DNA of 64,000 nt from Thermodesulfobacteriota bacterium (GTDB lineage: Bacteria > Desulfobacterota > DSM-4660 > Desulfatiglandales > HGW-15): contig JBHPCX010000004.1 in assembly GCA_042573485.1 (NCBI GenBank), forward strand, positions 18,210-82,209, written 5' to 3'. Made by a program: the position numbers and the translations under genes. Each line of letters starts with the position of its first letter. Positions within the stretch are counted from its first letter, which is position 1. Positions 44,363 through 63,873 of the stretch are shown here, piece by piece. The notes under the pieces were generated by a model, which was not told the origin of the DNA, searched no databases, and was given only the letters and a program-made list of their open reading frames with translations.

Positions 44363-45394
44363 TTGAATATAAAAAATAAGTCACATTTCCCGGTATCATT
44401 TTGCTTAACTGTATTAATTGCATCTTTTTTGTTGTGTGCCATTGTTCCGGCCTATGGAAAAGGCCCTGTGGTTTTAAGGCTGGTAGTGCCGACTCCAGCG
44501 GGTGACATGCTGACTGTAAAAGACCAGGAACTGGCGCAAAATTTTAACAAACGGGCAAATGGCGAATACAAGATTCAAGTTTTTCCCGGGGAATCAATTG
44601 TGAGAGTGCCCGAATACTTGGATGCCGTGAGAGTAGGCGCCATTGAAATGGCCGACACAGCCTGGGGTATTTACTCCGGGCATGATAAAAGGTTGGGGGT
44701 AACAGAAATGCCTTTCCTTTTTAATAATTTAAATGCCTGTGTTGATGCCGTTGAAAGACTCCTGACTCTATATGATGATCTGCTGCAGAAAAAATTTAAC
44801 CAGAAGGCCCTTTCTCTTTTTGCAATAGGAGGCATGGAGCTTATATCCACGAGACCGGTCAAAACACTCAAAGACTGGAAAGGGCTGATGACCGGGGCAA
44901 TCAATCCTCAGATATCAGCTTTGACACAGATGCTGGGAGGTGCTCCTGTCGTTGTGACCTGGACGGATCTTTACACGTCGCTTCAAAAGAAAATCATAGA
45001 TGCAGGTTTGTGTAATACTCATCAGATACTTACTTTCTCCCTTACTGATGTATGTAAGAATGTAACGGTATTTTATGGTGCTTCGGGATGGCAGGGATAC
45101 TCGATTAATTTGAATGTATGGAACAAAATGCCAGAACATATTAAAGAGATACTGCTTGATGAAGCGGATAAGGCAGCAAAAAAAATGCATAGGGAGTTTA
45201 TGAGGCTGCATGATGAAGATATTGAAATTCTCAGGACAAAAGGCATAAAAGTCCATGTAATACCTCCTGAAGAGAGAAAAATATGGGCCCGGAAATTACG
45301 TCCATATTTCAAAAAAGAGATCTCTTTTATGGGTGATTTTGGAGATAAGGTGATGAGAATAGCTGATGATGTGAATAGCAGGAATCCATATTAG
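44363..45394 (+). CDS. TRAP transporter solute-binding protein (DctP family), orphan copy
   Basis: Has a signal peptide. It is about 70% identical, by a hand alignment of 85 residues, to the DctP at 54049 (RLVVP..AGD.LT.KD.ELA..FN.R....YKIQVFPGES..R.PEY.DAVRVGAIEMAD.AWGIY.GHD.RL...E.PFLFNN). No Q/M genes are adjacent. Confidence 0.85.
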   Translation: MNIKNKSHFPVSFCLTVLIASFLLCAIVPAYGKGPVVLRLVVPTPAGDMLTVKDQELAQNFNKRANGEYKIQVFPGESIVRVPEYLDAVRVGAIEMADTAWGIYSGHDKRLGVTEMPFLFNNLNACVDAVERLLTLYDDLLQKKFNQKALSLFAIGGMELISTRPVKTLKDWKGLMTGAINPQISALTQMLGGAPVVVTWTDLYTSLQKKIIDAGLCNTHQILTFSLTDVCKNVTVFYGASGWQGYSINLNVWNKMPEHIKEILLDEADKAAKKMHREFMRLHDEDIEILRTKGIKVHVIPPEERKIWARKLRPYFKKEISFMGDFGDKVMRIADDVNSRNPY

Positions 45395-45777
45395 TTTCCA
45401 GTGTGCTTTGGGTTCTGTTAATATATGATTATGAAAAAGCGGCCCGCAGGATTAAAAAGACAGTCGCTACTGGAATAAAAGATCGGATTTATCAGAAAAG
45501 GCACAATCTGTAGACGGATATTATTGATTTTTATAAAATAATAGTATATAATACACGCTTTACTGCCATAATTTTACCTTAGTGGTAGGGTGGGTAAAAC
45601 CGGGGACCGCCCGGAAAATCAGTATAATATGCAGAATAAAATATAAAATCCCCGGGGGAATGATATTAAATTAAATGATATGAGGAGGGGGATGTCAGAT
45701 AGCTCCAGTTCATTTCAACGCTGTATGTGTTCATGGATCATCTGATAAACCATATGGAAATACTATAGGGGGAAGGC

Positions 45778-46929
45778 TTGAAAAAGATAAAAATATTCTT
45801 AATAACATTGCTCGCATCATTGGTTTTGCTTGGAGTCCCCGGGGCGAGTTCAGCCTATGATCCTTTGGATATTAGCGGTCTGAATGAATCTAATTTAACA
45901 CTTTCCATAGGTAGCAGGCCGGGTTACTCAGACTTTTCCTATGGCACCTCAATTGATTCCCTGTTACTGGAAAAGGAATACAATACCTACCTGCCCTGGA
46001 TGGATGAGACACAGTTTAAGGTGAGATTCGTTATTGATCCAAACCTGTGGTCACGTCCGGGACGTGAAATCAGCAGAGTAGACTCTCAAGTGTCGGGGCT
46101 GAGACACTCCCTTTTAGCGGACGCGAATTTTCTGAATTTAAATCCTGCATCTTTTGATGCGTCTTTTAATCCGGATGATTTCGGATATGGCCTTCAGATA
46201 AGCACTCTTTTTTTCGATTCCTCAGTAGACCTGTATTTCTGGACAGGAAGTGAAAACAGTCTTTTTACATCATTATCCGCTTCCAGAATAACTTCACCTT
46301 CTCAATTATGGGGAAGGACATCGGCATTATTTCACCTCGATAATTCCGAATATTATTTCAGAAATAAAAATGTAGCAGCCACGTGGTCGAAAGATTTGAG
46401 CTTTCTTGGCTTTATTCATCAGGGGACTGCTCCGACAATCAGGTTGGAAACATCCTACAGATCTGATGAAGTAAAGGCTGTGTACGCGGCTCCGGGCGTT
46501 ATCAATCGCTTAGGAGGATATGATGAATTGAGTTTCGGTATTGCATATGAAGGCAAAAATAATTTTGAATTGCTCAACTCTTCATATGGTATCAACTGGG
46601 GTTTCGGCTATAGTTACAGCAGGGCCCTTAATGTTCCTGAAATAATTGCTGACACAAGTCTTGAAAATTTTGATACAAGGCTCGGGACTCACAGTGGAAA
46701 TATTAATGCCAGTACGTCCTGGAAGAATATGAAATTAATGACGATGGTAATGTACCTTTATGATATTCAATCAAAGGGCGGTATAACCATGATGCAGGCT
46801 AATTTCAGTCCGGACTTGAGATGGACCTACGGAGTCAGGGCTAATTTTTACGATGGAGCTGAAAGCGCCTTATGGCCGTGGATTGAAGAGTCAGAACATA
46901 TATCCCTTTCAGTGACATATAAATGGTAA
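45778..46929 (+). CDS. Secreted protein of unknown function, possibly an outer-membrane beta-barrel
   Basis: Has a signal peptide MKKIKIFLITLLASLVLLGVPGASSA, a Ser/Tyr/Gly/Asn-rich alternating sequence and a C-terminal aromatic residue (..SVTYKW). Uses a TTG start. Confidence 0.55.
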   Translation: MKKIKIFLITLLASLVLLGVPGASSAYDPLDISGLNESNLTLSIGSRPGYSDFSYGTSIDSLLLEKEYNTYLPWMDETQFKVRFVIDPNLWSRPGREISRVDSQVSGLRHSLLADANFLNLNPASFDASFNPDDFGYGLQISTLFFDSSVDLYFWTGSENSLFTSLSASRITSPSQLWGRTSALFHLDNSEYYFRNKNVAATWSKDLSFLGFIHQGTAPTIRLETSYRSDEVKAVYAAPGVINRLGGYDELSFGIAYEGKNNFELLNSSYGINWGFGYSYSRALNVPEIIADTSLENFDTRLGTHSGNINASTSWKNMKLMTMVMYLYDIQSKGGITMMQANFSPDLRWTYGVRANFYDGAESALWPWIEESEHISLSVTYKW

Positions 46930-47050: not shown

Positions 47051-48919
47051 TTAGTCGCCGAAAAGGTCCTCAACTACATTCTCCAGTCCCCCAAGGCTTT
47101 CAAGTGATTCGCGGGTTGGCCTGAGAGTTGACCTGTCCCAGTCAACAGCTTCACAGAACTGGTCTATAAGATCTTTTATGTTTATGGTTACACCTTTGAG
47201 AGGACCTTCAGTCAATGGTGGTTCACCGGTAGCCCTTTTAGTCAGGATGTCTTCTGCAGGGTCCTGGCCTGCCTTTAAATTAAAAGCATGCCTGAGGTTA
47301 AATATCCTTTTCCCTGTTTCAGACACGTCCTTTTCTGAAAAATCCCAGCCTGTTGCGGCTGCAATATATCTGGGCATGGTACCCGGCGGCATCGCAAAAC
47401 CGCTGAAGGCGCAAAGTCCGGCGCAATTCTGGAGTTCGGTCTCATAGGTCGCCTGAGCATCTCTCGAACCCCTGTTCTCAGTATTATATTTAACATCAGG
47501 AGGGGCATTCATTTCCATCATGCCTGTGCTTCCTTTGACATGACGACCGGGAGTGGGATCATACCTGTACGTCCTGGCAAAACCCGGTGCGAATCGGGGA
47601 TCATGCATTGGTAGCTCAATTCCCCTGGCATTTTGCAGATATTCAGCTCCTTTGCCAAGTTGCTTGGCCGCAGCTTCGGATCCAAGGGCAAGCACTTTGC
47701 CAAAACCTTCCTGGTCAGCTATTGCCTGGGTCATGTCAACTATGGCATCGGCATTTCCCCATGTAAGCTCAGCACCGCCGGTGTCATCCCTGGTGATTAT
47801 GCCGTTTTCAAAACATTCCATCGCCCAGGCTATAGTTGCGCCGACTGATATAGTATCTAAACCGTATTTATTACAGATATCATTGCATTTTATTACAGAT
47901 TCTGCATTGCTGTTAAGCATCATAGCTCCAAATGCCCCAATTGTTTCGTATTCCGGTCTGTCAGTATCTTCTACCGGCCATTTGCCGTCCTTTACACTGT
48001 AGTGAGCCCCACAACCCATTGGGCAGTTGGAACATGCATATTTGCCTGTATTATACTTTGAGTCATAGGACAGGGTCGCAAGTTTATCAGCTTCTTCTTT
48101 TCCCATATCTGTTTCACCTGCACCACCCCAGTTTTTAATGGGAGAGTCACCTGACATTATCATCCCGCCTGTTCCTCCGCCGGTACCAAAGTTGCTAAAA
48201 CCTTCTATCATACCAGCCATAGGTCCTTCTTTCATGGCGCCCGGTATTTCCTTGGTTATTGCTTTAAAATCATCGGGCTTGGCAACGGTAAATTTGCCTG
48301 TTCCCCGTACAGCCACAGCTTTAAGCTTTTTTGATCCCATAACCGCGCCGCAGCCGCCCCTGCCGGCCGCGCGATGCGTGTCATTTATTACACATGCCAT
48401 CAGGGAAAGCATCTCACCGGCCTGACCGATGACTGCGGCTCTCAGTTTCTTCTCTCCTGTTTCCTCTATTAAACCTTCCAGGGTTTCAACACTGTTTTTG
48501 CCCCAGAGTTTTGATGCATCTCTTATTTCAGCTTTTCCATCTTCGACATAAATATATACAGGTTTGTCAGAAGCACCCGAGACTATTACACCATCAAATC
48601 CAGCCCTTTTTAACTCCGGGCCGAAAAATCCACCTGAATTTGCATCGTTCCAGCCATTTGTAACAGGTGATTTACAGACTACTGTGTAACGCCCTCCGAA
48701 TAACGCGCCTGTTCCGTTTAACAGTCCCGGCATAAATCCGATGACATTTCCGGGCCCAAGGGGATCAGCATCCGGTTCAATCATATCATATAGTAGTTTA
48801 GCCCCTATGCCATATCCGCCGATAAATTTTTTCATGAAATCCTCGGATAATTCCTTCTCTTCCAGTTTACCTGAGGATAGGTCGACTAAAAGTAGTTTGC
48901 CTGCGTAAACACCCGCCAT
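47051..48919 (-). CDS. Aldehyde:ferredoxin oxidoreductase (tungstopterin AOR family), copy 1
   Basis: 622 aa. The N-terminal AFOR_N block is GKLLLVDLSSGKLEEKELSEDFMKKFIGGYGIGAKLLYD. The 4Fe-4S ligand motif is CSNCPMGC, with GLDTISVGATIAWAMECFE. Confidence 0.9.
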   Translation of the reverse strand: MAGVYAGKLLLVDLSSGKLEEKELSEDFMKKFIGGYGIGAKLLYDMIEPDADPLGPGNVIGFMPGLLNGTGALFGGRYTVVCKSPVTNGWNDANSGGFFGPELKRAGFDGVIVSGASDKPVYIYVEDGKAEIRDASKLWGKNSVETLEGLIEETGEKKLRAAVIGQAGEMLSLMACVINDTHRAAGRGGCGAVMGSKKLKAVAVRGTGKFTVAKPDDFKAITKEIPGAMKEGPMAGMIEGFSNFGTGGGTGGMIMSGDSPIKNWGGAGETDMGKEEADKLATLSYDSKYNTGKYACSNCPMGCGAHYSVKDGKWPVEDTDRPEYETIGAFGAMMLNSNAESVIKCNDICNKYGLDTISVGATIAWAMECFENGIITRDDTGGAELTWGNADAIVDMTQAIADQEGFGKVLALGSEAAAKQLGKGAEYLQNARGIELPMHDPRFAPGFARTYRYDPTPGRHVKGSTGMMEMNAPPDVKYNTENRGSRDAQATYETELQNCAGLCAFSGFAMPPGTMPRYIAAATGWDFSEKDVSETGKRIFNLRHAFNLKAGQDPAEDILTKRATGEPPLTEGPLKGVTINIKDLIDQFCEAVDWDRSTLRPTRESLESLGGLENVVEDLFGD

Positions 48920-49204
48920 TTAATTCCTCCTTTTTAAATAATGTATCTACAGTGTTGTAAATGTGGTGGAAAATAGACTTTTAAATTATTCCGGTCTCTA
49001 AAGGATAATAAAACTTATGAAGCCAAGATTGAAATCCTAATGAAATACTGGTGGTTTGTCAATATTATTGGGTAGTTATATTATTGTGTGGGATAATGAA
49101 TTCAGGATTATTGAAAAGCTTTTTTCCGCACTTTCAAGTGTCTTTTATAGGGATTCTGAGGGCTTTCCAGTAAGCGATTTCACACTTTCAAATAAAAATT
49201 ACCC

Positions 49205-49233
49205 TTGACATCTAATAAGCTTCTGGCTAGATT
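49205..49233 (+). promoter_or_regulatory. Candidate sigma-70 promoter TTGACA-17 bp-TAGATT for the IclR gene
   Basis: Hexamers and spacing were read directly. It lies 38 nt upstream of the ATG at 49271. Confidence 0.45.
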
Positions 49234-49270
49234 TGAAATACAAAACAAAGGTTCTGGAGGGTAAACTAAA

Positions 49271-50056
49271 ATGGATAAAAAAGATCCAAAAAATAAATAT
49301 ATTGTTCCAGCAGTAGAACAGGCTATTCGTGTGTTGTTATGTCTTGCAGGATCTAAATCCTCCCATATGAGTCTTACGGAAATCTGTGAACAGGTTGGAA
49401 TACACAAAAGCAAGGCCTTTGGCATTCTTCATACTCTTCAGCGCTTTGGTCTGGTTCAGAGCCGTGGGCGGAAGAAGGGATATTCACTGGGGACCGGTTT
49501 AATCACTCTTTCAAGAAAAGTGCTTGATGGTATAAATGTGATTGCCTTTGCAGACCCGATGCTCAGAGACCTTTCCGATAAAGTAAAGGGCACTGCTGCT
49601 CTGGGTATAATCGATGGTGATACTGTGGTTGTAGTATCTCGATATGAAAGTATCAAGAATGTTGGTGTAACAATTCGGGTTGGCAATCATGTCCCCATTT
49701 CCTATGGAGCACACGGCAAGGCAATTGCGGCCTTTATGCCTGAAGGTGATCTGGATGCCCTTCTGCAAAAAGAAAAACTTCATTTTCATGGGAAACCTGA
49801 AAATTTTGACAAAGATCGTCTTATGATGGAACTTGAACAATGCAGAAAGACAGGTTACGCAACTGATATCGGAGAAATAACTCCCGGATTGAATGCTGCT
49901 TCAGCGCCTGTTATAGATATTAATGGAAAACCCATCGGATATCTTCTTGTTATTGGTCTATTCACGCCCGAAGCCACCAGAAAGCATGGTACATTAGTCG
50001 CAGAAGCCGGAAGAGACCTTTCAAGGCAGCTCGGGGCAAATCTGGACAATCTCTAA
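49271..50056 (+). CDS. IclR-family transcriptional regulator
   Basis: The N-terminal winged HTH is VEQAIRVLLCLAGSKSSHMSLTEICEQVGIHKSKAFGILHTL, followed by a C-terminal effector-binding domain. Lies divergent from AOR1. Confidence 0.88.
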   Translation: MDKKDPKNKYIVPAVEQAIRVLLCLAGSKSSHMSLTEICEQVGIHKSKAFGILHTLQRFGLVQSRGRKKGYSLGTGLITLSRKVLDGINVIAFADPMLRDLSDKVKGTAALGIIDGDTVVVVSRYESIKNVGVTIRVGNHVPISYGAHGKAIAAFMPEGDLDALLQKEKLHFHGKPENFDKDRLMMELEQCRKTGYATDIGEITPGLNAASAPVIDINGKPIGYLLVIGLFTPEATRKHGTLVAEAGRDLSRQLGANLDNL

Positions 50057-50151: not shown

Positions 50152-50484
50152 TTATTTGCTGAATATTGAAAGAAATGATTTCCTTATCCCCTGGATAGCC
50201 TTTTCATCCTTCAGAAGGTTTTCAAGCTCACCCGAATCAAGGTGGACCGCGCCGCAGTTTTCATTGGCACATATATCAATTTTTATGTCTCCCCTGTCTA
50301 CTTCAACCAGGCTTTTAGTCCCGCATCTAAAACAATGGTATGAATGATTAACCCGGTATTCCTGATCGGATTCTTTTTTGTTTCTATCTCTCAAATCACG
50401 GATAAGTTTTGCATCCTCTTCCTTGAAAAAAATCTCTTCATCACTCATCTCAGCTTGAATGCACACTTTTACTATTTCACTCAT
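50152..50484 (-). CDS. Zinc-ribbon protein (TFIIB-type zinc-finger-like)
   Basis: Four Cys in CFRCGTKSLVEVDRGDIKIDICANENCGAVHLDSGELENL. 110 aa. Confidence 0.5.
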   Translation of the reverse strand: MSEIVKVCIQAEMSDEEIFFKEEDAKLIRDLRDRNKKESDQEYRVNHSYHCFRCGTKSLVEVDRGDIKIDICANENCGAVHLDSGELENLLKDEKAIQGIRKSFLSIFSK

Positions 50485-50687: not shown

Positions 50688-52118
50688 ATGGAGAAATCAT
50701 CTAACATAATCTATTCACCTGAAGAAAAATGGGGCGCCATGCTGGCGATTACAACCGGTATGTTTATGAGCGCCCTTGATATGAGCATTATCAATATCTC
50801 ACTGCCAACCCTCATGGTTCAACTGAATACTAAATTTCTGGCAGTGCAATGGGTCATGATCTCATATAACCTTGTAATGACCTCGGTAATGATGGGTGCC
50901 GCAAGAATGGGTGATATGCATGATAAGAAAAAACTCAATAGCTGGGGGCTGCTGCTGTTTACCATTGGCTCCCTGCTATGCGGATTTTCCCCGAATGTCG
51001 GCTGGATGATCGCTTTCAGGGTATTGCAAGGCCTGGGAGCTGTTATTATTCACGCGCTGGGTATGGCGCTGGTTGCGGAATCCTTTCCTCCGGGAGAAAG
51101 AGGACGTGTAATGGGAATAATTGGGGCCGTATCCTCAGTCGCCTTTGCTCTCGGGCCCGCGATCGGTGGACTTATAATAGCCGCGGGCGGCTGGCGATGG
51201 ATATTCCTTTTTAAAGTGCCACTGGGGGTTTTAGCCCTCTGGGCCTGCGCCAAGTTTTTACCGAAGATATCGCCTCATCAAACAAATCAGAGGTTTGATA
51301 TTCTTGGTGCAGTTACCTTGTTTATTGCACTTGGCTGCTTCGCACTTGGAATGACTTTTGGCCAGGACCGGGGTTTCGGGGAAGTAATTGTGCAGTTAAT
51401 GCTGGCAATAGCATTCGCAGGTGTAATTGTTTTTTTATTCATTGAGAATAAAATTGAATTTCCGATGGTTGACCTGTCATTATTTAAGAATATACCCTTT
51501 TGCCTAAATCTTATGATGGGCTTTGTATCTTTTGTTACCATCAGCGGATTTTTCCTGATGCCCTTTTTCCTGCAGTTCGTGAGGCACTATACGCCAAAGG
51601 AAATAGGTTTTATAATGATGGTTACTCCTGTTTGTGTTGGAATTTTTTCCTATATATCAGGTAACCTGTCAGATCGTGTGGGAACACAAGGCCTGAGTAT
51701 AATTGGTATGTTTCTTCTTGCCGCGGGCTGCCTGTCTGTAAGTACTTTGACTCCAGAGACAGGAGTGGCGGGGTATTTACTGAGGCTTGTGCCTCTGGGT
51801 ATCGGGCTAGGGACTTTTTCTACACCTAATAACAGTGCAATTATGGGGGCTGCTCCTCCTGAAAGGTTCGGTGTTGCATCCGGGCTTCTTTCATTGACCA
51901 GGAGTCTTGCTCAGACTGCGGGAGTGCCTATAATGGGGACAATTTTCAGCGCTACATTAATATCCTATACAAAAATGGAAACTTTACCGGATATATCCGA
52001 AGTAACTCCCGATGCACTGGTAAGAGGGATTAACATGACATATCTTTTCGGGGGACTTTTTATAATCGCATTAACCATTTTCGCGATGTTCTTATTCAGG
52101 TTGAGAGGAAAACCTTAA
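50688..52118 (+). CDS. MFS transporter, DHA2 (EmrB/QacA-like, 14-TMS) drug/metabolite:H+ antiporter
   Basis: 476 aa with about 14 hydrophobic segments, motif A-like GDMHDKKK and motif C-like GPAIGGLIIAAGGWRWIF. Confidence 0.85.
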   Translation: MEKSSNIIYSPEEKWGAMLAITTGMFMSALDMSIINISLPTLMVQLNTKFLAVQWVMISYNLVMTSVMMGAARMGDMHDKKKLNSWGLLLFTIGSLLCGFSPNVGWMIAFRVLQGLGAVIIHALGMALVAESFPPGERGRVMGIIGAVSSVAFALGPAIGGLIIAAGGWRWIFLFKVPLGVLALWACAKFLPKISPHQTNQRFDILGAVTLFIALGCFALGMTFGQDRGFGEVIVQLMLAIAFAGVIVFLFIENKIEFPMVDLSLFKNIPFCLNLMMGFVSFVTISGFFLMPFFLQFVRHYTPKEIGFIMMVTPVCVGIFSYISGNLSDRVGTQGLSIIGMFLLAAGCLSVSTLTPETGVAGYLLRLVPLGIGLGTFSTPNNSAIMGAAPPERFGVASGLLSLTRSLAQTAGVPIMGTIFSATLISYTKMETLPDISEVTPDALVRGINMTYLFGGLFIIALTIFAMFLFRLRGKP

Positions 52119-53891: not shown

Positions 53892-53911
53892 CCTGTGTTT
53901 TAAATATATTT
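53892..53911 (+). promoter_or_regulatory. 20-bp motif cctgtgttttaaatatattt, copy 1 (an identical copy is at 61651-61670)
   Basis: The 20/20 match was read directly, and both copies are on the + strand. It lies about 20 bp upstream of a candidate promoter (TTGTCA ... TGaTATAGT, 53930-53956) for the TRAP-cupin operon. Confidence 0.6.
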
Positions 53912-55613: not shown

Positions 55614-55694
55614 ACTGATTCCTGTGAAATAATACCTGAGTTCATCTGGCTGGATAGACCGGTATTTGAGTGAAGTTCTGTTTTCGGAGGTTTA

Positions 55695-56996
55695 GTGGAT
55701 TATAACACCGCGTCCATATTATGCGCCGGCTTAATGTTCTTTCTACTCCTGCTGGGTGTGCCTATAGCCTATTCACTGGGATTCAGCTCAATAGTAGTGG
55801 GATATTTTGCCTTTGGAAGCTTTGCTCTCCAGAAGGCCGGCTGGACCACATTTCAGCTGCTTTATAATCTTACATGGACGCCTCTCCCCCTCTTTACACT
55901 CATGTCCTACCTTATTGCCGAGACAAAGATGGGCGAACACCTTTTCCGAACAGCAAGAAACTGGATGTCACGTCTGCCGGGCGGACTGTTTGTAGCAGGT
56001 ATCCTCGGGGAGGCAGGAATGGCCGCCGCCCTTGGCGCGAGCGGTCCGACAATTATAGCTGTTGGAAATGTCGCAGTCCCTGAATTTAAGAGATATTCAT
56101 ATAATAAACCCCTTGGCCTGGGCGCTTTGACCTGCGGTGGAGTCCTTGGCCCTTTGATACCTCCCAGTGCTACGATGATCATTTTTGCAATCCTGGCCAA
56201 TGTTCCCCTTGGCCGCCTGTTTATCGCCGGGGTGATCCCCGGGATACTGCTGGCCGTGATGCTGTCTCTCGTTCCCATAATAATGTGCGCGAGGAATCCC
56301 GAACTCGGCAGGGCAGCGGGGAAAATAAGCTGGGGTGAAAGAATCTCTTCACTCAAACTTATCTGGCCCATTGTCCTTGTAATGTTCGGCATACTGGGGT
56401 CAATATATTTTGGTATAGCTACTCCTACTGAGGCGGGTGGCGTCGGGTGTTTTATCGTACTTGTTATAGCTGTGCTTTTTTTTAATTTAAGACTAAAAGG
56501 TCTTCACAGGGCAATGGTTAAAACCGCGGTACTCAATGCCACAATTATGATTATACTTGTGGGGTCATCTTTTTTTACATATGTTTTTGGAAGTTCATCA
56601 ATCGCACAGAAACTGTCTGTATTCATAGCATCAATGAATTTGCCTCCATTGGCTGTAGTTGTGGCAATAATGATTTTTCTGTTGTTCCTGGGGTGCTTTA
56701 TTGATGGAATAACCATAATGATGCTTACGGTACCTATTTTTATACCGATAATTACCGAGCTTGGCTTTGATCCATTGTGGTTTGGAATATTGTTTGTCGT
56801 AAATATGGAAATTGCCCTGATTACACCTCCAATGGGGATCAATTTTTTTCTTGTCAGGAATAGTTTTAATATTTCGAGTATTGACTTGATAAAAGGTATA
56901 TGGCCTTTTTTAATAGTCCTTGTACTGTTTCTTGCCTTAACGGTTGCATTTCCTCAACTGAGTCTCTGGCTGCCGGGATTGATGATTGGAAAGTAG
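55695..56996 (+). CDS. dctM: TRAP transporter large permease DctM family
   Basis: 433 aa and highly hydrophobic (about 12 TM). Blocks such as GGVLGPLIPPSATMIIFA and NMEIALITPPMGINFF are typical of DctM. Uses a GTG start. Confidence 0.9.
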   Translation: MDYNTASILCAGLMFFLLLLGVPIAYSLGFSSIVVGYFAFGSFALQKAGWTTFQLLYNLTWTPLPLFTLMSYLIAETKMGEHLFRTARNWMSRLPGGLFVAGILGEAGMAAALGASGPTIIAVGNVAVPEFKRYSYNKPLGLGALTCGGVLGPLIPPSATMIIFAILANVPLGRLFIAGVIPGILLAVMLSLVPIIMCARNPELGRAAGKISWGERISSLKLIWPIVLVMFGILGSIYFGIATPTEAGGVGCFIVLVIAVLFFNLRLKGLHRAMVKTAVLNATIMIILVGSSFFTYVFGSSSIAQKLSVFIASMNLPPLAVVVAIMIFLLFLGCFIDGITIMMLTVPIFIPIITELGFDPLWFGILFVVNMEIALITPPMGINFFLVRNSFNISSIDLIKGIWPFLIVLVLFLALTVAFPQLSLWLPGLMIGK

Positions 56997-57051: not shown

Positions 57052-57498
57052 ATGAGTAAAGTGAAATATGATAAATTTATTGTCCAGGGCATAACCCCTG
57101 AAATGAAGAAGATGTCCTATCCGGGAAAACCTCAGGACATCCCTCCTGAAAACGCGAAAAGAATAGCCTGGATGGATGATCATGTTGTAGAGGGATCATT
57201 TTATACAGAGGCTGTCTGGATATGGAAGGGTGATGAAGGGTCTGTGGAAAAGCCCCACATCCATGATTTCGATGAAGTAATCACCTTCTTTGGTTCTGAT
57301 TTTGAAAATCCCGATGAACTGAACGGGGAAATTGAATTCTGGTATGAAGATGAAAAGCATATTTTTACCAAAAGCGTTATGCTCTTTATCCCGAAGGGGC
57401 TGAAACACTGTCCTCTTATCATCAGGAGGGTGGACAGGCCCATTTTCCATTACACCGCGGGAACCGGAAGAAGCCATGTCCAGGATATAGCAGGTTGA
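57052..57498 (+). CDS. Uncharacterised cupin-like protein, single module (paralog A, HCP subtype)
   Basis: Cupin motif 1 is PHIHDFDEVITFFG and motif 2 is IPKGLKHCP. Shares the AVWIWKG strand and the RVDRPIFHY tail with paralogs B and E. Confidence 0.8.
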   Translation: MSKVKYDKFIVQGITPEMKKMSYPGKPQDIPPENAKRIAWMDDHVVEGSFYTEAVWIWKGDEGSVEKPHIHDFDEVITFFGSDFENPDELNGEIEFWYEDEKHIFTKSVMLFIPKGLKHCPLIIRRVDRPIFHYTAGTGRSHVQDIAG

Positions 57499-57501
57499 AA
57501 A

Positions 57502-57975
57502 ATGTCTGAATCAAAATTTGCTAAAAATATAGTAACCGAAGATTTAATGCCGCCTTTTCCCGAACCGGTTTTAAAAATGCTGGATAAACAGGAGAAGGAG
57601 GGTAAATATCTGGACAGGACATTAATGTTCGGCATTAATGATTCAATTGTTAAAGGGTCCTTTTTTTCAGGTTGTGAGTGGCTCTGGGAATTGAAGGACG
57701 GGAAACCCTTCCAGATTGAAGCAGCCCACTCCCATGATTTTGATGAGGTTATTGGTTTGATAGGGTCCCGGAGAGAAAACCCCAGGGAACTTGGAGGGGA
57801 AGTGGAATTCTGGATTGAGGATGAGAAACATATCCTAACAAAGAGCTGCCTGATGTATATCCCGAAAGGTACCATGCACTGTCCCCTTATTATCAACAGG
57901 ATTGACAGCCCGATTTTTCTATACGAGGCAGGGAATGACACTTTCTACAAAAGAAATATATCAGAACAGGAATAA
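57502..57975 (+). CDS. Uncharacterised cupin-like protein, single module (paralog B, HCP subtype)
   Basis: Blocks are AHSHDFDEVIGLIG, NPRELGGEVEFWIEDEKHILTKS, IPKGTMHCP and RIDSPIFLY. Starts 4 nt after paralog A. Confidence 0.8.
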   Translation: MSESKFAKNIVTEDLMPPFPEPVLKMLDKQEKEGKYLDRTLMFGINDSIVKGSFFSGCEWLWELKDGKPFQIEAAHSHDFDEVIGLIGSRRENPRELGGEVEFWIEDEKHILTKSCLMYIPKGTMHCPLIINRIDSPIFLYEAGNDTFYKRNISEQE

Positions 57976-57984
57976 AGGGGAGTC

Positions 57985-58890
57985 ATGAATATGATTGAAC
58001 AGGATGTTTCAAGTTATTTGATTGACAGGCCAATTAAAAGGGACCTGAAGGGCAGGAACCATGGACAGCTTTTAACATATGCCAGTGACTCCCAGATTCC
58101 CGGTCTTCAGTACTATACTCAGATCCGCTGGATAACAGGAATGCCTGAATCGATTCCTGGAGACAGGGCGTTAGTATGTGACAGTGATAAGGTGGTTTTA
58201 TTCTGGGGCAATGACTATAAAGATCCGGAGAACCTTGGCGCGGACATTGAATTTCAGCTTGATGGAACCGTATTGCAATTTAACAGCTCAAGCTCGATCT
58301 TTGTACCAGCTGGTGTAAGTCATGGTCCTGCGATCTGGAGAAACCATGAAACTCCTCATGTGGAGATGACAATACTCATTAACAGGGGTAACCTTAAGGG
58401 TGTAACCTCAACTGATAAAGTATCTGAGTTGAGACATGTATCTGACCCCGGGAAATATATTGTCCGAAAACCTGCATACGAGGTTGTGGCTCCTACCCCC
58501 ACGAAAAACAGGATGCATCCTTCAATGACCTTTATGAGTAATAATCTTGTTCCCGATTCGAATACCTATCTCGAATTCAGCTGGATATGGGGTATGCCTG
58601 ATCCTGATCCGCATATTATGGAACATGTACATGAAGACAGTAACGAGCTTGTGTTTCATATAGGGGCCAATCCTGATGACCCTGAAGAACTGGGAGCGGA
58701 AATAGAAATATTTCTTGACGGCAAACCTCTTATGATCAAAAAGACTTCCGCCCTTTATGCACCTAAAAAGATAAGTCATGGACCTCTTAAATGGAAGAAC
58801 TACACAAAACCCCATATTGAGATGGCCATTATTTTTGATGCCGGTGTTCTCGCCCAGTCAGATCCTGGCGGGCACCAGAAGAATCTTTAA
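57985..58890 (+). CDS. Uncharacterised two-module (bicupin-like) protein (paralog C, HGP subtype)
   Basis: The N-module has a degenerate site (LVCDSDKVVLFWG ... VPAGVSHGP). The C-module is intact (EHVHEDSNELVFHIG ... APKKISHGP). Both have the ...W-I-x-G-M-P strand. Confidence 0.8.
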   Translation: MNMIEQDVSSYLIDRPIKRDLKGRNHGQLLTYASDSQIPGLQYYTQIRWITGMPESIPGDRALVCDSDKVVLFWGNDYKDPENLGADIEFQLDGTVLQFNSSSSIFVPAGVSHGPAIWRNHETPHVEMTILINRGNLKGVTSTDKVSELRHVSDPGKYIVRKPAYEVVAPTPTKNRMHPSMTFMSNNLVPDSNTYLEFSWIWGMPDPDPHIMEHVHEDSNELVFHIGANPDDPEELGAEIEIFLDGKPLMIKKTSALYAPKKISHGPLKWKNYTKPHIEMAIIFDAGVLAQSDPGGHQKNL

Positions 58891-58917
58891 TGCAGCCCGT
58901 TCCTTAAGGAAAGAAAA

Positions 58918-59826
58918 ATGAATCAAACAAACTATGAAAAGTATATGGTAAGGAGCCCTCTCAGGGAAATTGGTAAAGATGTCAAAGGACGAAGTGCTCC
59001 CGCAATGACTTACATGAGCAATGACCTTGTTGAAGGTTGTAACAAGTATATCGATATAAGCTGGATATATGGAATACCGGAGCCCAATCCCCATGTCTTT
59101 GAACACGCTCATGAATATGACAAGATAGTCTTCTTTGTTGGAGGAGATCCATATAATTTAGAGAGCCTCGGCGGTGAGATAGAATATTACCTCGGCGGAC
59201 AGCCGATAAGCCTGAACACAACATCGGCTCTGTACATTAAGAAGGGTGTTAGGCATGGTCCGGTGACATGGAAGGACTTTCCAAGGCCCCATCTGGAGAT
59301 TTCTATTATTCTTGGACCTGAAAAGAATAAAGCAGGCTGGTCAGCTGAAGAAGTCACCGGTCAAAAACAGCCTGAAAAATCGGATGATGTGGATTATGAA
59401 AAGTATGTTGTAAGAAAACCTGCCATTCTTCAGGGAACCGATGTAACAGAGGCGATGAAAAGTCCCGCCCGGATATATATGAGCAGTGATCTTGTTCCGG
59501 AAAGCAGTGTGTATGTGGATTTCGGCTGGATACCAGGTATGCCCGGACAAAATCCGCCCATACCTGATCACTCCCATGATTATGAAGAGGTAGTATTGCT
59601 TGTTGGAAATGATCCTGAGAATCCTGAAATACTCGGGGCTGAAATCGAGTTCTGCATAGATGATCAGCCCCTGACATTTGATACAACCACGGCAATATAT
59701 GCCCCAAGGTCTCTCAAGCACGGTCCCCTTACATGGAAGAAATTCGAAAGGCCCCATTTGCTGATGCCAATAGTAATCGGAACAGGATCTCTGGCTGAAG
59801 CAGCGCCGGCAGGGTATAAGGAATAA
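58918..59826 (+). CDS. Uncharacterised two-module (bicupin-like) protein (paralog D, HGP subtype)
   Basis: The N-module reads EHAHEYDKIVFFVG ... IKKGVRHGP (Glu position replaced by Lys). The C-module reads DHSHDYEEVVLLVG ... APRSLKHGP. Each half opens with YEKY[MV]VR[SK]P. Confidence 0.8.
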   Translation: MNQTNYEKYMVRSPLREIGKDVKGRSAPAMTYMSNDLVEGCNKYIDISWIYGIPEPNPHVFEHAHEYDKIVFFVGGDPYNLESLGGEIEYYLGGQPISLNTTSALYIKKGVRHGPVTWKDFPRPHLEISIILGPEKNKAGWSAEEVTGQKQPEKSDDVDYEKYVVRKPAILQGTDVTEAMKSPARIYMSSDLVPESSVYVDFGWIPGMPGQNPPIPDHSHDYEEVVLLVGNDPENPEILGAEIEFCIDDQPLTFDTTTAIYAPRSLKHGPLTWKKFERPHLLMPIVIGTGSLAEAAPAGYKE

Positions 59827-59952
59827 TAAAAGCGGTTTATCCGTCGACACCAAAAGGATAAGGCGGGTTAAAAAATTTAAAAAATGGCTAGTTGTAGAAT
59901 ATAATACGGTGTCAGAACTTTTTCATAATCATATCTGATCCCCTTTTTCCCA

Positions 59953-60030
59953 GTGTTTTGATTTTTTAAAGATTAACAGCTCTACCCGGTATCAAGAAAT
60001 TAAATCCATAATCTTTTAAAATCAAAACAC
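59953..60030. repeat. Imperfect 21-22-bp inverted repeat gtgttttgattttttaaagatt / aatcttttaaaatcaaaacac, 35 bp apart, in the spacer before the fifth cupin gene
   Basis: Read directly. The outer 13 bp are perfect, followed by a 1-nt length difference in the T/A run. The GTGTTTT core also begins the 20-bp motif at 53892 and 61651. Confidence 0.7.
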
Positions 60031-60126
60031 GCGGTTTATTCAGGAGGCTATCTGCAGATATAATTATGAAAAAATCTGACAACTCCTTAAAAAAAATAAA
60101 CGCTTTTATTAATTTGGAGAAAATAA

Positions 60127-60567
60127 ATGGGAAAAATGGACAGCAGGTATTTTGCGACAAAGCCCAGGAATAACATACCTTCTACTCCATGGGACCCTGT
60201 TTTTAAACCTGATGAAGCAACACGTATGATGTATCTTGATAAGACCATCCTTGAAGGGGCTTTTTATCTGGAATGCGCCTGGTTCTGGCCGGGAGAATGG
60301 CCAAAGGGTAAAAACTGGAGTGAACATGGTGTAAAGTCTCATGTACATGATTATGACGAAGTAATAGCATTTTATGGCACTAATCCCGAAGATCCTGAAG
60401 ATCTTTGCGGTGAAGTAGAATTGTGGATAGGCGGAGAACAGAATATAGCGGATAAAAGTTTTGTGGCCTTTATCCCAGCAGGAATTGAACACTGTCCGCT
60501 AAACATCCTGAGAGTGGACAGGCCGATTTTTCATTTTTCAACCGGTCCCGGGAAAAGTTATTTTTAA
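60127..60567 (+). CDS. Uncharacterised cupin-like protein, single module (paralog E, HCP subtype)
   Basis: Blocks are SHVHDYDEVIAFYG, NPEDPEDLCGEVELWIGGEQ, IPAGIEHCP and RVDRPIFHF. Confidence 0.8.
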   Translation: MGKMDSRYFATKPRNNIPSTPWDPVFKPDEATRMMYLDKTILEGAFYLECAWFWPGEWPKGKNWSEHGVKSHVHDYDEVIAFYGTNPEDPEDLCGEVELWIGGEQNIADKSFVAFIPAGIEHCPLNILRVDRPIFHFSTGPGKSYF

Positions 60568-60578
60568 AGGAGGAAGGT

Positions 60579-60890
60579 ATGATACGTGCATCTGTGTATT
60601 ACCCGTCAGGAGAAGGAAAAATTGATATGGATTATTATCTTAATACCCATATCCCTCTTGTTGAAAAATTAATGGAACCCTACGGTCTTGTGAAAGTTGA
60701 AGTTGATAAAGGTATAGGGGGCGGAAAACCAGGGGAAGCGGCACCCTTTGTTACTATAGCTCAAATGGTGTTCAATTCCATGGAAGAATTTCAAAAGGGG
60801 TCTGAAGTCCATGAAGGCGAGTTTGCCGCTGACGTGAAAAATTTTACTGATATAAAGCCGTTCTTTCAGGTCAGTGAAATAGTAAAATAG
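60579..60890 (+). CDS. EthD-family (dimeric alpha/beta-barrel, TIGR02118-like) protein
   Basis: 103 aa. MIRASVYYPSGEGKIDMDYYLNTHIPLV...APFVTIAQMVFNSMEEFQKG...DVKNFTD fits the EthD pattern. An AGGAGG RBS sits upstream. Confidence 0.7.
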   Translation: MIRASVYYPSGEGKIDMDYYLNTHIPLVEKLMEPYGLVKVEVDKGIGGGKPGEAAPFVTIAQMVFNSMEEFQKGSEVHEGEFAADVKNFTDIKPFFQVSEIVK

Positions 60891-61059: not shown

Positions 61060-61497
61060 ATGTTACTGGATGATATAGATCGAGCATTAATAAAAGAACT
61101 TGAAAAGGATGCAAGAGTTAGCAGTGATGTTTTGGCCAGGAACCTGAACATCAGCTCGACAACAATAAGGCGGAGAACCAGGAGGCTTATTCAGGAAGGC
61201 ATTATTAAGATTGTAGCTATCCCTGATCTGAAAAAACTGGGCTTTTCGGTAATCGTTGGGATACGGATGGAACTGGATCAGAAAAAGATCGACAATGTTA
61301 CCAAAGAATTGATAAAACACCCGAATGTCAGGGGTGTGTGGACAATAACAGGCAGGTATAATCTTTCTTCAATGGCGGTTTTTCGATCCACGGAGGAATT
61401 TTCAGAATTTATGCGTAATGTTGTCGGGGATCTGGATGGTTTGAAATCGGTTGAAACACACATTTATCTCGAACTTATCGGTTCTCAGGCCGAATAA
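61060..61497 (+). CDS. AsnC/Lrp-family transcriptional regulator
   Basis: The HTH is LDDIDRALIKELEKDARVSSDVLARNLNISSTTIRRRTRRLIQEGII, followed by a C-terminal RAM/ACT-like domain. Confidence 0.88.
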   Translation: MLLDDIDRALIKELEKDARVSSDVLARNLNISSTTIRRRTRRLIQEGIIKIVAIPDLKKLGFSVIVGIRMELDQKKIDNVTKELIKHPNVRGVWTITGRYNLSSMAVFRSTEEFSEFMRNVVGDLDGLKSVETHIYLELIGSQAE

Positions 61498-61650: not shown

Positions 61651-61670
61651 CCTGTGTTTTAAATATATTT
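61651..61670 (+). promoter_or_regulatory. 20-bp motif cctgtgttttaaatatattt, copy 2
   Basis: Identical to 53892-53911. It lies 42 nt upstream of the AOR2 start and overlaps the expected -35 region of a cataat -10 element at 61688-61693. Confidence 0.6.
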
Positions 61671-61711
61671 TCTAAATTATTCCTGATCATAATCTTTAAA
61701 GGAGGGGAGAT

Positions 61712-63574
61712 ATGTATAAAGGAGGATATACCGGGAAAATACTGAGAATCAATCTGTCTGATCAGTCGGTTAAAACTGAGAGTCTGCCGGAAGACCTGGC
61801 CAGGATGTTTATCGGTGGAGCGGGATTCGGTATTAAATTATTGTTTGATGAGGTCGGGAAGGGCACTGACCCCCTGGGGCCTGAAAACAAATTGATCTTC
61901 GCGTCCGGCCCATTCTCGGGCACATCGGTACCCTGCGCGAGCCGTATGGCGATCACAGGTAAATCCCCCCTTACTGGCGGGGTTGGCGTATCTCTTACAG
62001 GCGGATATTTCCCTGTTGAGTTGAAATTCGCGGGCTATGATATCATGATTATCGAAGGAAGATCTGAGGAGCCTGTGTACATATCCATCAAGGACGGGAA
62101 TGTAAAATTCAGGAGTGCCAAAAAAGTATGGGGGATGAAGACAACCGATACCCAGCAGATAATAAAAAATGAATTGAATGATCAGAACACAAGAATAGCA
62201 TGTATAGGCCCTGCCGGTGAAAATCTAAGTAAACTGGCCTGCATTATAAATGAACTGAGGGCGGCAGGCAGAAAAGGGCTGGGAGCTGTAATGGGTTCTA
62301 AGAACCTGAAGGCAATAGCTGTAAGGGGTACCGGAGAAGTAGATATCGCGTCAAAGGAAAAACTGAAAACAGCAAGAGATTTTATGGCAAAGCAAATGAA
62401 TGACAGTGAAGTCCTTTATCCACATTTTGCAAAACTCGGAACTCCCATGGTTGTCGATGCCTTGAGCGGTCTTGGAATATTCCCCGGAAAAAACTTTGAA
62501 GAAACGGGGGTATTCGTTCCCGTAGAAGAAATTGGTGTTGAGACCCAGGTTACCAGGAACATGGGCAGTGAACACTGTTACGGATGCCCGGTCGGGTGCA
62601 GCCAGCTGAAGCTTGCGAAAACAGGAGAATATTCAGGTATTATGGCTGAAGGCCCTGAATTTGAAACAATGTATTCCTTTGGCGGGACAACAGGTGTGGA
62701 TAATATTGATGCCATTATCGCGGCCGACAGGCTGTCTGACGAACTGGGGCTGGATACGATTTCAGCGGGAGCAACAATAGCCTTTGCCATGGAGCTCTTT
62801 GAAAAAGGGATCATAACCCTGGAAGATACGGGCGGAATAGATCTGAAATTCGGAAACCACAGGGTAATGGTGGATATGCTCAGGCTGATGGCCTACAGGG
62901 AAGGTTTCGGTGATGTTTTGTCAGATGGCACCAGGATCGCGGCTGAAAGAATAGGCAAAGGATCAGAAAAATATGCCATGCATGTAAAGGGTCTTGAACT
63001 GCCCGGTTATGATGTCAGGGGGGCAAAGGCCCATGGACTTAATTATGCCACATCATACACTGGTGCTGATCATAACAGGGGTTACGCGTTCCAGGAAATA
63101 TTCGGCATACCTGTACCTGAAGCAGTTGACAGGTTTGCCGCGGAAGGAAAGGGGAAACTCACTAAATGGAACCAGGATGTAAGGTCTGCCACATGTGATA
63201 CCCCTACCATGTGTGCCTTTTTACTCGATATGGCTGTACCGGGAGTTGCCACCCAGAATACGGCGAGTTTGATGGAGGCTGTTACGGGCCTTGAATTTAC
63301 ACCGGAAGAGGTTGAAAGAGTAGGAGAGAGGATAAACAACCTCGCGAGGTTATTTAACGCCCGGGAAGGCATGACAAGGGATGATGATAACCTCCCGGAA
63401 AGAATAATGACCGAACCTATAAAGGATGGTGTTTCAAAGGGAAATTTTATCAGCAAGGATGATCTGAACCTTATGCTGGATGAATATTATACTGCCAGGG
63501 GATGGGACCTCAAGACAGGTACGCCTACCAAGGAGAAACTCGAGGAACTGGGATTGGGGGATGCGGTCGAATAG
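61712..63574 (+). CDS. Aldehyde:ferredoxin oxidoreductase (tungstopterin AOR family), copy 2
   Basis: 620 aa with GKILRINLSDQSVKTESLPEDLARMFIGGAGFGIKLLFD, the cluster motif CYGCPVGC and GLDTISAGATIAFAMELFE. Confidence 0.9.
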   Translation: MYKGGYTGKILRINLSDQSVKTESLPEDLARMFIGGAGFGIKLLFDEVGKGTDPLGPENKLIFASGPFSGTSVPCASRMAITGKSPLTGGVGVSLTGGYFPVELKFAGYDIMIIEGRSEEPVYISIKDGNVKFRSAKKVWGMKTTDTQQIIKNELNDQNTRIACIGPAGENLSKLACIINELRAAGRKGLGAVMGSKNLKAIAVRGTGEVDIASKEKLKTARDFMAKQMNDSEVLYPHFAKLGTPMVVDALSGLGIFPGKNFEETGVFVPVEEIGVETQVTRNMGSEHCYGCPVGCSQLKLAKTGEYSGIMAEGPEFETMYSFGGTTGVDNIDAIIAADRLSDELGLDTISAGATIAFAMELFEKGIITLEDTGGIDLKFGNHRVMVDMLRLMAYREGFGDVLSDGTRIAAERIGKGSEKYAMHVKGLELPGYDVRGAKAHGLNYATSYTGADHNRGYAFQEIFGIPVPEAVDRFAAEGKGKLTKWNQDVRSATCDTPTMCAFLLDMAVPGVATQNTASLMEAVTGLEFTPEEVERVGERINNLARLFNAREGMTRDDDNLPERIMTEPIKDGVSKGNFISKDDLNLMLDEYYTARGWDLKTGTPTKEKLEELGLGDAVE

Positions 63575-63582
63575 TGCACATT

Positions 63583-63873
63583 ATGATTAGAGTAAATTTA
63601 TACACCATACTGGGAATAAAAGATATCATCGGAGAGAGAGAAGTTGGAATTGAAGTCCCTGATAATTCCAGTCTTTCAGGTTTAATAACGGAGATTGTTA
63701 ATCGATGGGGAAATGGTATATCGGAAGTGCTTTTCGAGCCGGAAAGCAAAAAGATAAAGGCACATTTACGCCTTATGGTAAACGGCCAGGACATCAGCTT
63801 TCTGGACGGACTGGATACAAGGCTCAAGGATGGTGATGAGGTGATGATATTTCCGCCGGTGTCGGGGGGGTAA
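63583..63873 (+). CDS. MoaD/ThiS-family ubiquitin-like sulfur-carrier protein (C-terminal Gly-Gly)
   Basis: 96 aa ending in ...DGDEVMIFPPVSGG*. ATG 63583 lies 9 nt after the AOR2 stop. The track start at 63502 overlaps AOR2 and is unlikely. Confidence 0.8.
   Translation: MIRVNLYTILGIKDIIGEREVGIEVPDNSSLSGLITEIVNRWGNGISEVLFEPESKKIKAHLRLMVNGQDISFLDGLDTRLKDGDEVMIFPPVSGG

Follow-up and report, generated by a model that had tools for sequence, protein, structure and literature searches.

The TRAP (tripartite ATP-independent periplasmic) transporters of the SiaPQM, DctPQM and IsePQM type recognize their substrates by an arginine of the solute-binding protein (SBP), which confers selectivity for carboxylates (Fischer et al., PMC4646407). 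This arginine is missing from only ~3% of the DctP-type SBPs, and the known examples bind atypical ligands, Csal_0678 binding ethanolamine and Tp0957 a hydrophobic ligand (PMC4646407). Aldehyde oxidoreductases (AORs) of the tungsten type are described both as homodimeric archaeal-type enzymes and as AorABCDE of Aromatoleum aromaticum, whose operon contains the MoaD-like aorD and aorE as presumed maturation factors of the tungsten cofactor (PMC6365974). MoaD-like genes found beside AOR genes are accordingly taken as cofactor-maturation factors and not as enzyme subunits (PMC6365974; PMC11725836). Genes for a TRAP transporter, a family of cupins and two AORs lie together at positions 44,363 to 63,873 of a 64,000-nucleotide stretch (the window) from a bacterium of the order Desulfatiglandales. 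The stretch is probably made of two independently inherited loci that have become joined, the second of which would be a real functional unit for transport, conversion by cupins and oxidation by an AOR.

The window belongs to contig C181 of a 4.0-Mb metagenome-assembled genome (MAG) with a completeness of 84%, here G000, and its genes were called with an open-reading-frame (ORF) map together with Pfam and NCBIfam family models. Block A (44.3–53.3 kb) follows smc-ftsY and consists of the gene of a secreted protein (unk383), AOR1, a divergent IclR regulator gene, a variable middle and AKR-FeS, the gene of an iron-sulfur aldo/keto reductase. Block B (53.4–63.9 kb, continuing to a LUD-domain gene and an iron-type alcohol dehydrogenase gene (Fe-ADH) past the window) has the order PNPOx on the minus strand, then DctP2QM, cupA, cupC, cupD, EthD, AsnC and AOR2. 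An AOR1 orthologue with 79–86% identity was found 1.4–2.8 kb from ftsY in 10 of 10 same-genus genomes, and Block A fetched from six relatives reads ftsY, unk383, AOR1 (−), IclR (+), a variable segment and AKR-FeS. In seven other genera of the family smc-ftsY is kept, with different genes downstream each time, so that the synteny break which a first-pass annotation of this DNA had proposed to look for at ftsY is present. Being fixed behind smc-ftsY in all ten genomes of the genus and absent from this place in seven other genera, Block A is best described as an old genus-level insertion that is now part of the genus core. Block B is conserved in its own right. A cupD orthologue (73–82% identical) occurs in 10 of 10 genus genomes, in eight of them with an AOR2-type gene beside it; the full order was seen in the clusters fetched from G004 and G008, a partial one in G006, G010, G001 and G003, and an independent Desulfatiglans MAG (L002) carries the same cluster. 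The genes of the fetched clusters are 72–93% identical to those of the window, except EthD with 64–73%.

The two blocks directly follow one another only in G000 and G010. In G003 an insertion of about 19 kb separates AKR-FeS from PNPOx, and in G006 the blocks reside on separate contigs of 572 kb and 326 kb. The first-pass annotation had read the region as a single 20-kb island in which an SBP, an AOR and a regulator recur in two parallel modules. The single island does not survive the comparison, because all 10 genus genomes have Block A and at least part of Block B, and only two have them side by side. Nor do the genes thought to lie between the modules form a conserved bridge, since relatives have an HDOD protein and a hybrid histidine kinase there. 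The parallel holds for the SBPs only: the AORs fall in different deep clades, the IclR and AsnC regulators are unrelated, and DctP1 occurs in two of seven inspected genus genomes. The annotation had conceded that its island would fall if the genes turned out to be core in all relatives, and this is so in part, both blocks being conserved in the genus and Block A being fixed at ftsY. The GC content ranges from 0.39 to 0.45 across the window and the region does not differ from the rest; no tRNA gene was found in the window, and family scans found no transposase or integrase among the genes of the region. Hence the usual marks of an island, namely a compositional anomaly, a flanking tRNA gene, a mobility gene and a patchy presence, are lacking, and the synteny break against distant relatives is there. 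Patchy within the genus are only DctP1, cupB, cupE and the MoaD-like gene.

The orphan gene dctP1 lies 8.7 kb upstream of dctP2. It was correctly recognized earlier as lacking a permease of its own, since its neighbours are ftsY and the 383-residue gene, and DctQ and DctM adjoin DctP2. DctP1 and DctP2 match PF03480 with 136 and 146 bits and NF037995 with 115 and 119 bits (cut-off 50), TIGR00787 remaining below its cut-off. They are 54% identical over 331 residues and 72% over the best 85-column window; the ~70% over 85 residues that had been estimated by hand thus holds locally, as a local maximum. Neither has any other close paralog in the genome, where the next one is at most 25% identical.

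Both SBPs lack the arginines that clamp carboxylates. In HMMER alignments to five solved SBPs (4pfr, 4nhb, 4p47, 4n6d and 9dsy) the canonical arginine aligns with a glycine in DctP2. A multiple alignment places glycine at the equivalent of Arg147 of SiaP in DctP1, DctP2 and every orthologue examined, including a 41%-identical Bacillota protein, and the first arginine site is occupied in all of them by glutamate (aspartate in the Bacillota protein). Four solved SBPs in the same alignment have arginine at the Arg147 site, and three of these have it at the first site as well. Since both clamping arginines are replaced, the substrate is unlikely to be an ordinary organic acid, and the organic acid proposed earlier becomes doubtful; judging from the binding-site residues, the imported solute is probably neutral or cationic and hydroxylated, and not a classical carboxylate. 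DctP1 and DctP2 are for the same reason good targets for ligand screening and structure determination.

Among the seven genus genomes whose ftsY–AOR1 interval was inspected, G000 and G006 alone contain DctP1, in the same place and with 76% identity. The DctP2 orthologue of G006 is broken up into four short ORFs that overlap (L022, G006:C5, 14880–15820, minus strand), while DctQ, DctM and DctP1 are intact. This may be a natural swap of binding proteins, or possibly an assembly error. A broken DctP2 beside intact DctP1 and DctQM suggests that the orphan DctP1 uses the DctQM of Block B.

Transporter, cupin and AOR genes are found together well outside the genus. Gene contexts were taken around homologues of the bicupin CupD, and 7 of the 11 independent lineages of the cupD type have an AOR-family gene at ~10 kb or less, where the AOR density of G000 gives a rough chance of ~9% per locus. 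The combination occurs in other Desulfatiglandales genera, Bacillota, Dehalococcoidales, Chloroflexi and one unassigned lineage, and single- and double-domain cupins co-occur in the bicupin neighbourhoods. A TRAP transporter with this type of SBP was found in the own genus, in G019, in G021 and in Bacillota. The cluster of G019 comprises AOR, short-chain dehydrogenase/reductases (SDRs), cupins, an aldehyde dehydrogenase (ALDH) and PNPOx divergent from DctP2QM, and the set of G021 is similar. That of Bacillota comprises cupins, SDR, DctPQM, ThiS, Fe-ADH, AOR and a second ThiS, also with enoate-reductase-like flavoproteins; L030 has AOR, ThiS and cupins, and Dehalococcoidales a cupin followed by an AOR. 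A ThiS/MoaD-like gene often follows the AOR, with AOR–ThiS pairs in L004 and L030. The dehydrogenase partners are Fe-ADH in G000, G001, G010 and Bacillota, and several SDRs with an NAD-type ALDH in G019 and G021.

Both AORs contain the AFOR_N and AFOR_C domains with scores above the Pfam cut-offs (258 and 329 bits for AOR1, 274 and 435 bits for AOR2). The four cysteines of the [4Fe-4S] cluster as well as Glu313, His448, Arg76 and Asp343 (P. furiosus numbering) are kept in AOR1, AOR2 and the cupin-linked AORs of other lineages, and the two proteins are therefore predicted to be tungsten-type aldehyde oxidoreductases with intact catalytic and cluster residues. The first-pass annotation rightly described them as homologous and much more diverged than the DctP pair, with 37% identity against 54%. 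In maximum-likelihood trees built with a small reference set, which has no GAPOR, WOR4, WOR5 or BamB references and, beyond the AORs, only the genome's own distant paralogs, the characterised AORs (1aor, 9g7j, 9mqx and 8c0z) form a clade of their own (support 99/97, then 100/100) that leaves AOR1 and AOR2 outside, with the backbone unresolved. AOR2 and the cupin-linked AOR of L030, an unassigned contig, make up a second clade (99/98). AOR1 belongs to a third, larger clade (100/99), in which it groups with the cupin- and TRAP-linked AOR of Bacillota (100/100); this clade also contains the AORs of G019 and G021 that lie beside the same PNPOx, DctP2QM and cupin genes, cupin-adjacent AORs of Dehalococcoidales and AOR3, the third paralog of the genome. 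Their separate, well-supported clades make AOR1 and AOR2 ancient paralogs and not a duplicated module. The AOR phylogeny that had been proposed as a check on the island puts neither of them, with this small reference set, into a clade of well-defined unrelated role, and both clades recur beside the cupin family. Since AORs of its superclade accompany the same transporter and cupin genes elsewhere, AOR1 may link Block A metabolically to Block B.

No Pfam or NCBIfam model matches cupA to cupE above its cut-off, and Pfam Cupin_2 stays below the gathering threshold. The AlphaFold2 model of CupD is a bicupin (pLDDT 92) whose nearest folds in the Protein Data Bank (PDB) are BacB and AerE, both non-redox isomerases, at a TMq of at most 0.56 and an identity of at most 15%; a PDB sequence search with the bicupin found nothing significant. 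The cupin motifs G(X)5HXH(X)3-4E(X)6G and PXG(X)2H, with the HxH..E..H metal ligands, are complete in five of the seven modules and degenerate in two. Worldwide the family amounts to 1,034 clusters at 50% identity among 1.84 billion representatives. G000 alone contains 35 loci (42 segments), for instance C170:1021–4421, C212:13741–16031, C34:887–1783 and C207:10078–10965. Every same-genus genome has 28–42 matches, while most other genera of the family have 0–1, three have 23–35 and one has 11. Because the host can be presumed strictly anaerobic on the basis of its taxonomy and gene content, oxygenase chemistry is unlikely for these proteins. A literature search found no paper linking Desulfatiglans to these cupins or to AOR.

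From the observed gene content, synteny, phylogeny and missing arginines a pathway can be proposed, of which the direction of flux, the chemistry of the cupins and the class of substrate are inferred. The solute imported by the TRAP system would not be a classical carboxylate; it is probably hydroxylated and either neutral or cationic, and DctP1, a second and diverged binding protein, most likely hands a related ligand to the same DctQM. Metal-binding cupins, single- and double-domain and some with degenerate metal sites, would then act as a heteromeric set in a non-oxidative conversion, either an isomerisation or a lyase or decarboxylase step. This conversion together with dehydrogenases acting at the alcohol level, Fe-ADH here and SDRs with ALDH in other genera, would give an aldehyde, which the AOR would oxidise to the acid with reduction of ferredoxin. 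Import of a neutral or cationic compound fits a route from alcohol or ketone through aldehyde to acid, whose steps Fe-ADH, SDR, ALDH and AOR could supply. It is possible, as a tentative proposal, that Desulfatiglandales, Bacillota, Dehalococcoidales and Chloroflexi share an undescribed oxygen-independent route in which a non-acid such as a polyol, sugar, amino alcohol or phenolic alcohol or aldehyde is imported by an arginine-less TRAP system, converted by heteromeric metal-cupins and oxidised by dedicated AOR clades, with DctP1 widening the range of the permease.

Several observations weigh against this route. An SBP without Arg147 can in principle bind an acid, though weakly (PMC4646407). 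Across the cupin family of G000 adjacency to AOR is not enriched, an AOR lying within 6 kb at 4 of the 35 loci where ~2 are expected; the link between cupin and AOR is specific to the Block-B-type cupin subfamily. Block B is partly decayed in several relatives (G003, G006, G009 and G010), some of these differences being possibly MAG artefacts, and would therefore be dispensable. AOR2 is cleanly absent from G003, G009 has an in-frame stop in AOR2 and a stop in one cupin, and in G010 an AAA_14/DUF4143 ATPase gene has supplanted PNPOx and most of the TRAP genes. In addition, a 20-bp repeat, CCTGTGTTTTAAATATATTT, whose two exact copies precede dctP2 and AOR2 and of which 0.01 is expected by chance, is absent from the equivalent regions of every relative. 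As a shared dctP2/AOR2 operator it was rejected, being exact and non-random yet conserved in no relative, and it is not used as evidence of co-regulation.

Whether the two blocks have anything to do with each other can be answered in opposite ways. At one extreme stands the horizontally acquired 20-kb island for catabolism or detoxification, with two parallel SBP–AOR–regulator modules serving two related organic acids or aldehydes. The SBPs are indeed specific paralogs, the residues predicted to be catalytic are intact in both AORs, synteny against other genera breaks at ftsY, and the AOR1 superclade is tied to the same TRAP and cupin genes elsewhere. Nevertheless, this model is improbable and largely refuted by synteny, as both blocks are genus-wide, Block A is fixed at ftsY and the blocks are unlinked in most relatives; neither a compositional anomaly nor a tRNA gene nor a transposase or integrase among the genes of the region speaks for acquisition, the AORs are only 37% identical and from different deep clades, the regulators come from unrelated families, and DctP1 is missing from five of seven inspected genus genomes. 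At the other extreme the blocks would be unrelated neighbours, AOR1 and IclR detoxifying aldehydes, the MFS permease and AKR-FeS forming a stress or efflux pair, and DctP1 being a decaying or neofunctionalised duplicate. That the blocks are unlinked in most genus genomes, that relatives have unrelated signalling genes in the middle of Block A, that no motif is common to the promoters of both blocks and that WOR/AOR enzymes are often assigned broad detoxification roles (PMC11725836) all agree with it. However, G000 and G006 have intact copies of DctP1 with 76% identity, and in G006 DctP1 is the only intact SBP of its type beside an intact DctQM; furthermore, in G019, G021, Bacillota and Dehalococcoidales it is AORs of the AOR1 superclade that accompany the same TRAP and cupin genes. 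This explanation is hence unlikely.

Other alternatives concern Block B itself. It could run in the reductive direction, AOR2 turning an imported carboxylic acid into the aldehyde and Fe-ADH the aldehyde into the alcohol as an electron sink, with the cupins modifying the acid. AORs can reduce non-activated acids, routes combining AOR and alcohol dehydrogenase are documented (PMC6365974; PMC10816221; PMC12727526), and Fe-ADH is in or beside Block B in G000, G001, G010 and the Bacillota cluster. The missing carboxylate-binding arginines of the SBPs argue against an imported acid, and the cluster is accompanied in other genera by an NAD-type ALDH, an oxidative enzyme. Moreover, Fe-ADH is no member of the cluster in G004, G008 and the L002 MAG, and a lineage assumed from taxonomy alone to reduce sulfate has no obvious need for an organic electron sink; a reductive Block B is accordingly quite improbable. 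The repeated proximity of AOR, MoaD-like and cupin genes in unrelated lineages, with metal sites degenerate in two of seven modules, could also mean that the cupins serve these AOR clades as accessory or assembly proteins, or as additional subunits, rather than being pathway enzymes. This has very little probability, since G003 keeps the TRAP, cupin and EthD genes without AOR2, bicupins of Dehalococcoidia and Acidobacteriota have no AOR nearby, the cupin loci of G000 seldom have one within 6 kb, and the complete HxH..E..H of five modules would point to catalysis. The oxidative route through import, cupin conversion and AOR is the preferred reading, with moderate confidence.

The features of the region are collected in Table 1. 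Every gene listed by the first-pass annotation was found where it had been placed and the family models agree, and its description of the region as rich in genes for anaerobic aldehyde and redox catabolism is borne out by the gene content. Beyond the window, C181 continues with the LUD-domain gene, which is syntenic in relatives, Fe-ADH, a flavoprotein and a GlcD/FeS-like oxidase.

Table 1. Features of the region, with positions in the window and supporting matches.
Feature	Position	Strand	Remarks
ftsY	43296..44261	+	Block A anchor in every same-genus genome; synteny break point vs other genera
DctP1, orphan TRAP solute-binding protein	44363..45394	+	PF03480, NF037995
383-aa secreted protein (unk383)	45778..46929	+	signal peptide ...GASSA/YDP (cleavage at the slash); C-terminus ...VTYKW; no family match
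AOR1	47051..48919	-	AFOR_N + AFOR_C
AOR1-iclR divergent control region	48920..49270		conserved non-coding block
IclR-family regulator	49271..50056	+	IclR_C, HTH_IclR
Zn-ribbon protein	50152..50484	-	PF13453; variable segment
DHA2-family MFS efflux permease	50688..52118	+	TIGR00711, 270 bits vs cut-off 230
AKR-FeS, aldo/keto reductase fused to a 2x[4Fe-4S] dicluster domain	52218..53258	+	Aldo_ket_red, Fer4 dicluster; distal end of Block A
PNPOx-like FMN-binding protein	53434..53859	-	PF01243; start of Block B, divergent from TRAP operon
20-bp repeat, copy 1, CCTGTGTTTTAAATATATTT	53892..53911	+	upstream of dctP2
DctP2-DctQ-DctM TRAP transporter	54049..56996 (DctQ+DctM 55095-56996)	+	Pfam DctP, DctQ, DctM
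cupA (148 aa), cupB (157), cupC (301), cupD (302), cupE (146)	57052..60567	+	five cupin-family genes, seven modules, two subtypes
EthD-family protein	60579..60890	+	PF07110, TIGR02118
AsnC/Lrp-family regulator	61060..61497	+	Pfam; Block B
20-bp repeat, copy 2	61651..61670	+	42 bp upstream of AOR2
AOR2	61712..63574	+	AFOR_N + AFOR_C
MoaD-like Gly-Gly protein	63583..63873	+	TIGR01687, 64.6 bits vs cut-off 49.5; starts 9 nt after AOR2 stop

Within Block A the IclR regulator is 70–83% identical in relatives, at the same position and divergent from AOR1 in every genus genome inspected, and AKR-FeS is 69–76% identical in all relatives inspected. A second AKR-FeS copy, 52% identical, is found in G000 at C152:36613–37653. 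The segment from IclR to AKR-FeS is variable: relatives have the HDOD protein and a GAF-PAS hybrid histidine kinase, G000 has the Zn-ribbon and MFS genes, and G003 has an additional set of three genes (175, 763 and 325 aa) that resembles a molybdenum hydroxylase by size alone. Among the inspected relatives the DHA2 MFS gene occurs only in G006 and G009. The positional orthologues of unk383 in the genus are 33–39% identical, and nine homologues were found among 5.8e9 proteins; the AlphaFold2 model built on these nine reaches a pLDDT of 32, too low to be of use. The protein would be a fast-evolving secreted one, possibly an outer-membrane beta-barrel.

Four observations outside the main argument may be recorded. 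In G021, a different genus, a 699-residue AOR-family-like protein is encoded ~3 kb downstream of ftsY (L053, G021:C105, 5027–7894); it is 27–34% identical to AOR1 and AOR2, a different AOR-type gene at the same variable spot, and its gene adjoins one for a 248-residue protein whose N-terminus, ...RRDFLVVGG..., resembles a twin-arginine signal. The insertion of G003 (L018–L020/L001, G003:C2, ~198–217 kb) carries genes with SLFN/AlbA_2, HATPase_c_4 and RhuM domains and is defence- or mobile-element-like. Directly upstream of the AOR in the G019 cluster (L044, G019:C35, 4124–5569) is a gene of the MutL family (PF13941), a family associated with B12-dependent mutases. Finally, the profile of the cupin family matches P0154, a protein of 5,647 residues, in 58 separate stretches, which may be a giant cupin-like repeat protein or a low-complexity artefact.

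In Block B, the divergent position of PNPOx is kept in the genus, in G019 and in L001–L003, and EthD after cupD is conserved in the genus. AsnC is 84–86% identical in relatives and always between EthD and AOR2, and AOR2 is 84–89% identical. DctM is 84–93% identical within the genus and 85–86% in two other genera. The latter value raised the suspicion of lateral transfer of the TRAP genes between genera, which was rejected as the DctM tree puts the other genera outside the genus group; the tree fits vertical descent, and strong conservation is favoured. G000 is peculiar in having the extra cupB and cupE and in having Fe-ADH downstream of the cluster instead of inside it. No counterparts of cupB and cupE were detected in the clusters of relatives, while cupA, cupC and cupD are conserved in the genus. 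The MoaD-like protein ends in ...PPVSGG. In G010 and the L002 MAG its gene is missing behind AOR2, and 117–174 nt separate AOR2 from the LUD gene. In G010 (L032, G010:C4, 5323–7814) the AAA_14/DUF4143 ATPase gene, which is NERD-like, and a 131-residue ORF stand in place of PNPOx and the 5′ part of the TRAP genes, of which only a 113-residue DctP and an 86-residue DctM remain.

The regulatory DNA offers one candidate. The spacer between AOR1 and iclR contains a block, TTTATTAAAAATAA..GGAATCCTAATGGAACA..TTGTCAAT..TATTAAG, that is conserved in 7 of 7 genus genomes aligned and is a candidate IclR operator and promoter. The same spacer has in G000 a private insert of ~100 bp with CACTTTCAA boxes; these were set aside, as they are confined to the insert of this one genome. 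Upstream of dctP2, the loci L024, L027, L019, L022 and L002 have a TTGACA promoter-like box (TTGTCAAG) followed by a palindrome, AAAACCGAACACTCGGTAAAGT, and G000 has neither. A scan of 44–64 kb for promoters and terminators gave counts within chance. The Rfam scan of the region returned no match, and no riboswitch of the molybdenum or tungsten cofactor type (Moco/Tuco) was found upstream of AOR1 or AOR2.

Anoxic sediments are rich in Desulfatiglandales and Dehalococcoidia, groups whose genomes leave a large part of the carbon metabolism unexplained. An atypical TRAP system, a lineage-expanded family of metal-cupins and two AOR clades provide a defined and concrete handle on one such pathway. 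The main interest lies in the association of TRAP, cupin and AOR across phyla, in the arginine-less SBP subfamily with its orphan paralog and in the expansion of the cupin family. This study also illustrates that neighbouring redox genes resembling one island can be two loci joined by a rearrangement in a single sub-lineage.

Compared with the described systems, the transporter shares with SiaPQM, DctPQM and IsePQM the tripartite P, Q and M composition and the Pfam/NCBIfam membership of all three components. It differs from them, with their arginine selectivity filter, in that both clamping arginines have become glycine and glutamate in this subfamily and in the extra orphan SBP paralog. An SBP gene without an adjacent membrane component, its permease presumed to be elsewhere, is also known from the orphan SBPs of the TTT family, such as the Bug proteins of Bordetella and AdpC (PMC5812351). 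These are of the TTT and not of the TRAP family, and here there is one orphan with one obvious partner, the DctQM of its sole close paralog.

The cupins are like BacB and AerE (isomerases of prephenate-derived 2-oxoacids), quercetinase and oxalate decarboxylase in their predicted two-barrel single chain and in the HxH..E..H motif. Unlike these enzymes, to which identity and TMq stay at the low values given above, they match no Pfam model above its cut-off and have an extra conserved 'PH' motif after each barrel, and double-domain cupins occur beside single-domain paralogs. Homodimeric archaeal-type AORs, that of Pyrococcus furiosus (1aor) and the bacterial 9g7j and 9mqx, are the best PDB matches of the two AORs (473 bits for AOR2, 395 bits for AOR1), with the same domain pair, all cluster and active-site residues and no aorA- or aorC-like neighbours. 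AOR1 and AOR2 nevertheless form their own clades, and a context of TRAP and cupin genes is not described for the characterised enzymes. With AorABCDE of A. aromaticum (8c0z; PMC6365974) the locus shares an AOR-family catalytic subunit and the MoaD-like gene beside AOR2, although the match is weaker (376 and 320 bits) and the MoaD-like gene is absent from the cluster of close relatives. Genes of the aorA type (polyferredoxin) or aorC type (FAD subunit) flank neither AOR1 nor AOR2, the MoaD-like gene after AOR2 being the only neighbour of this kind.

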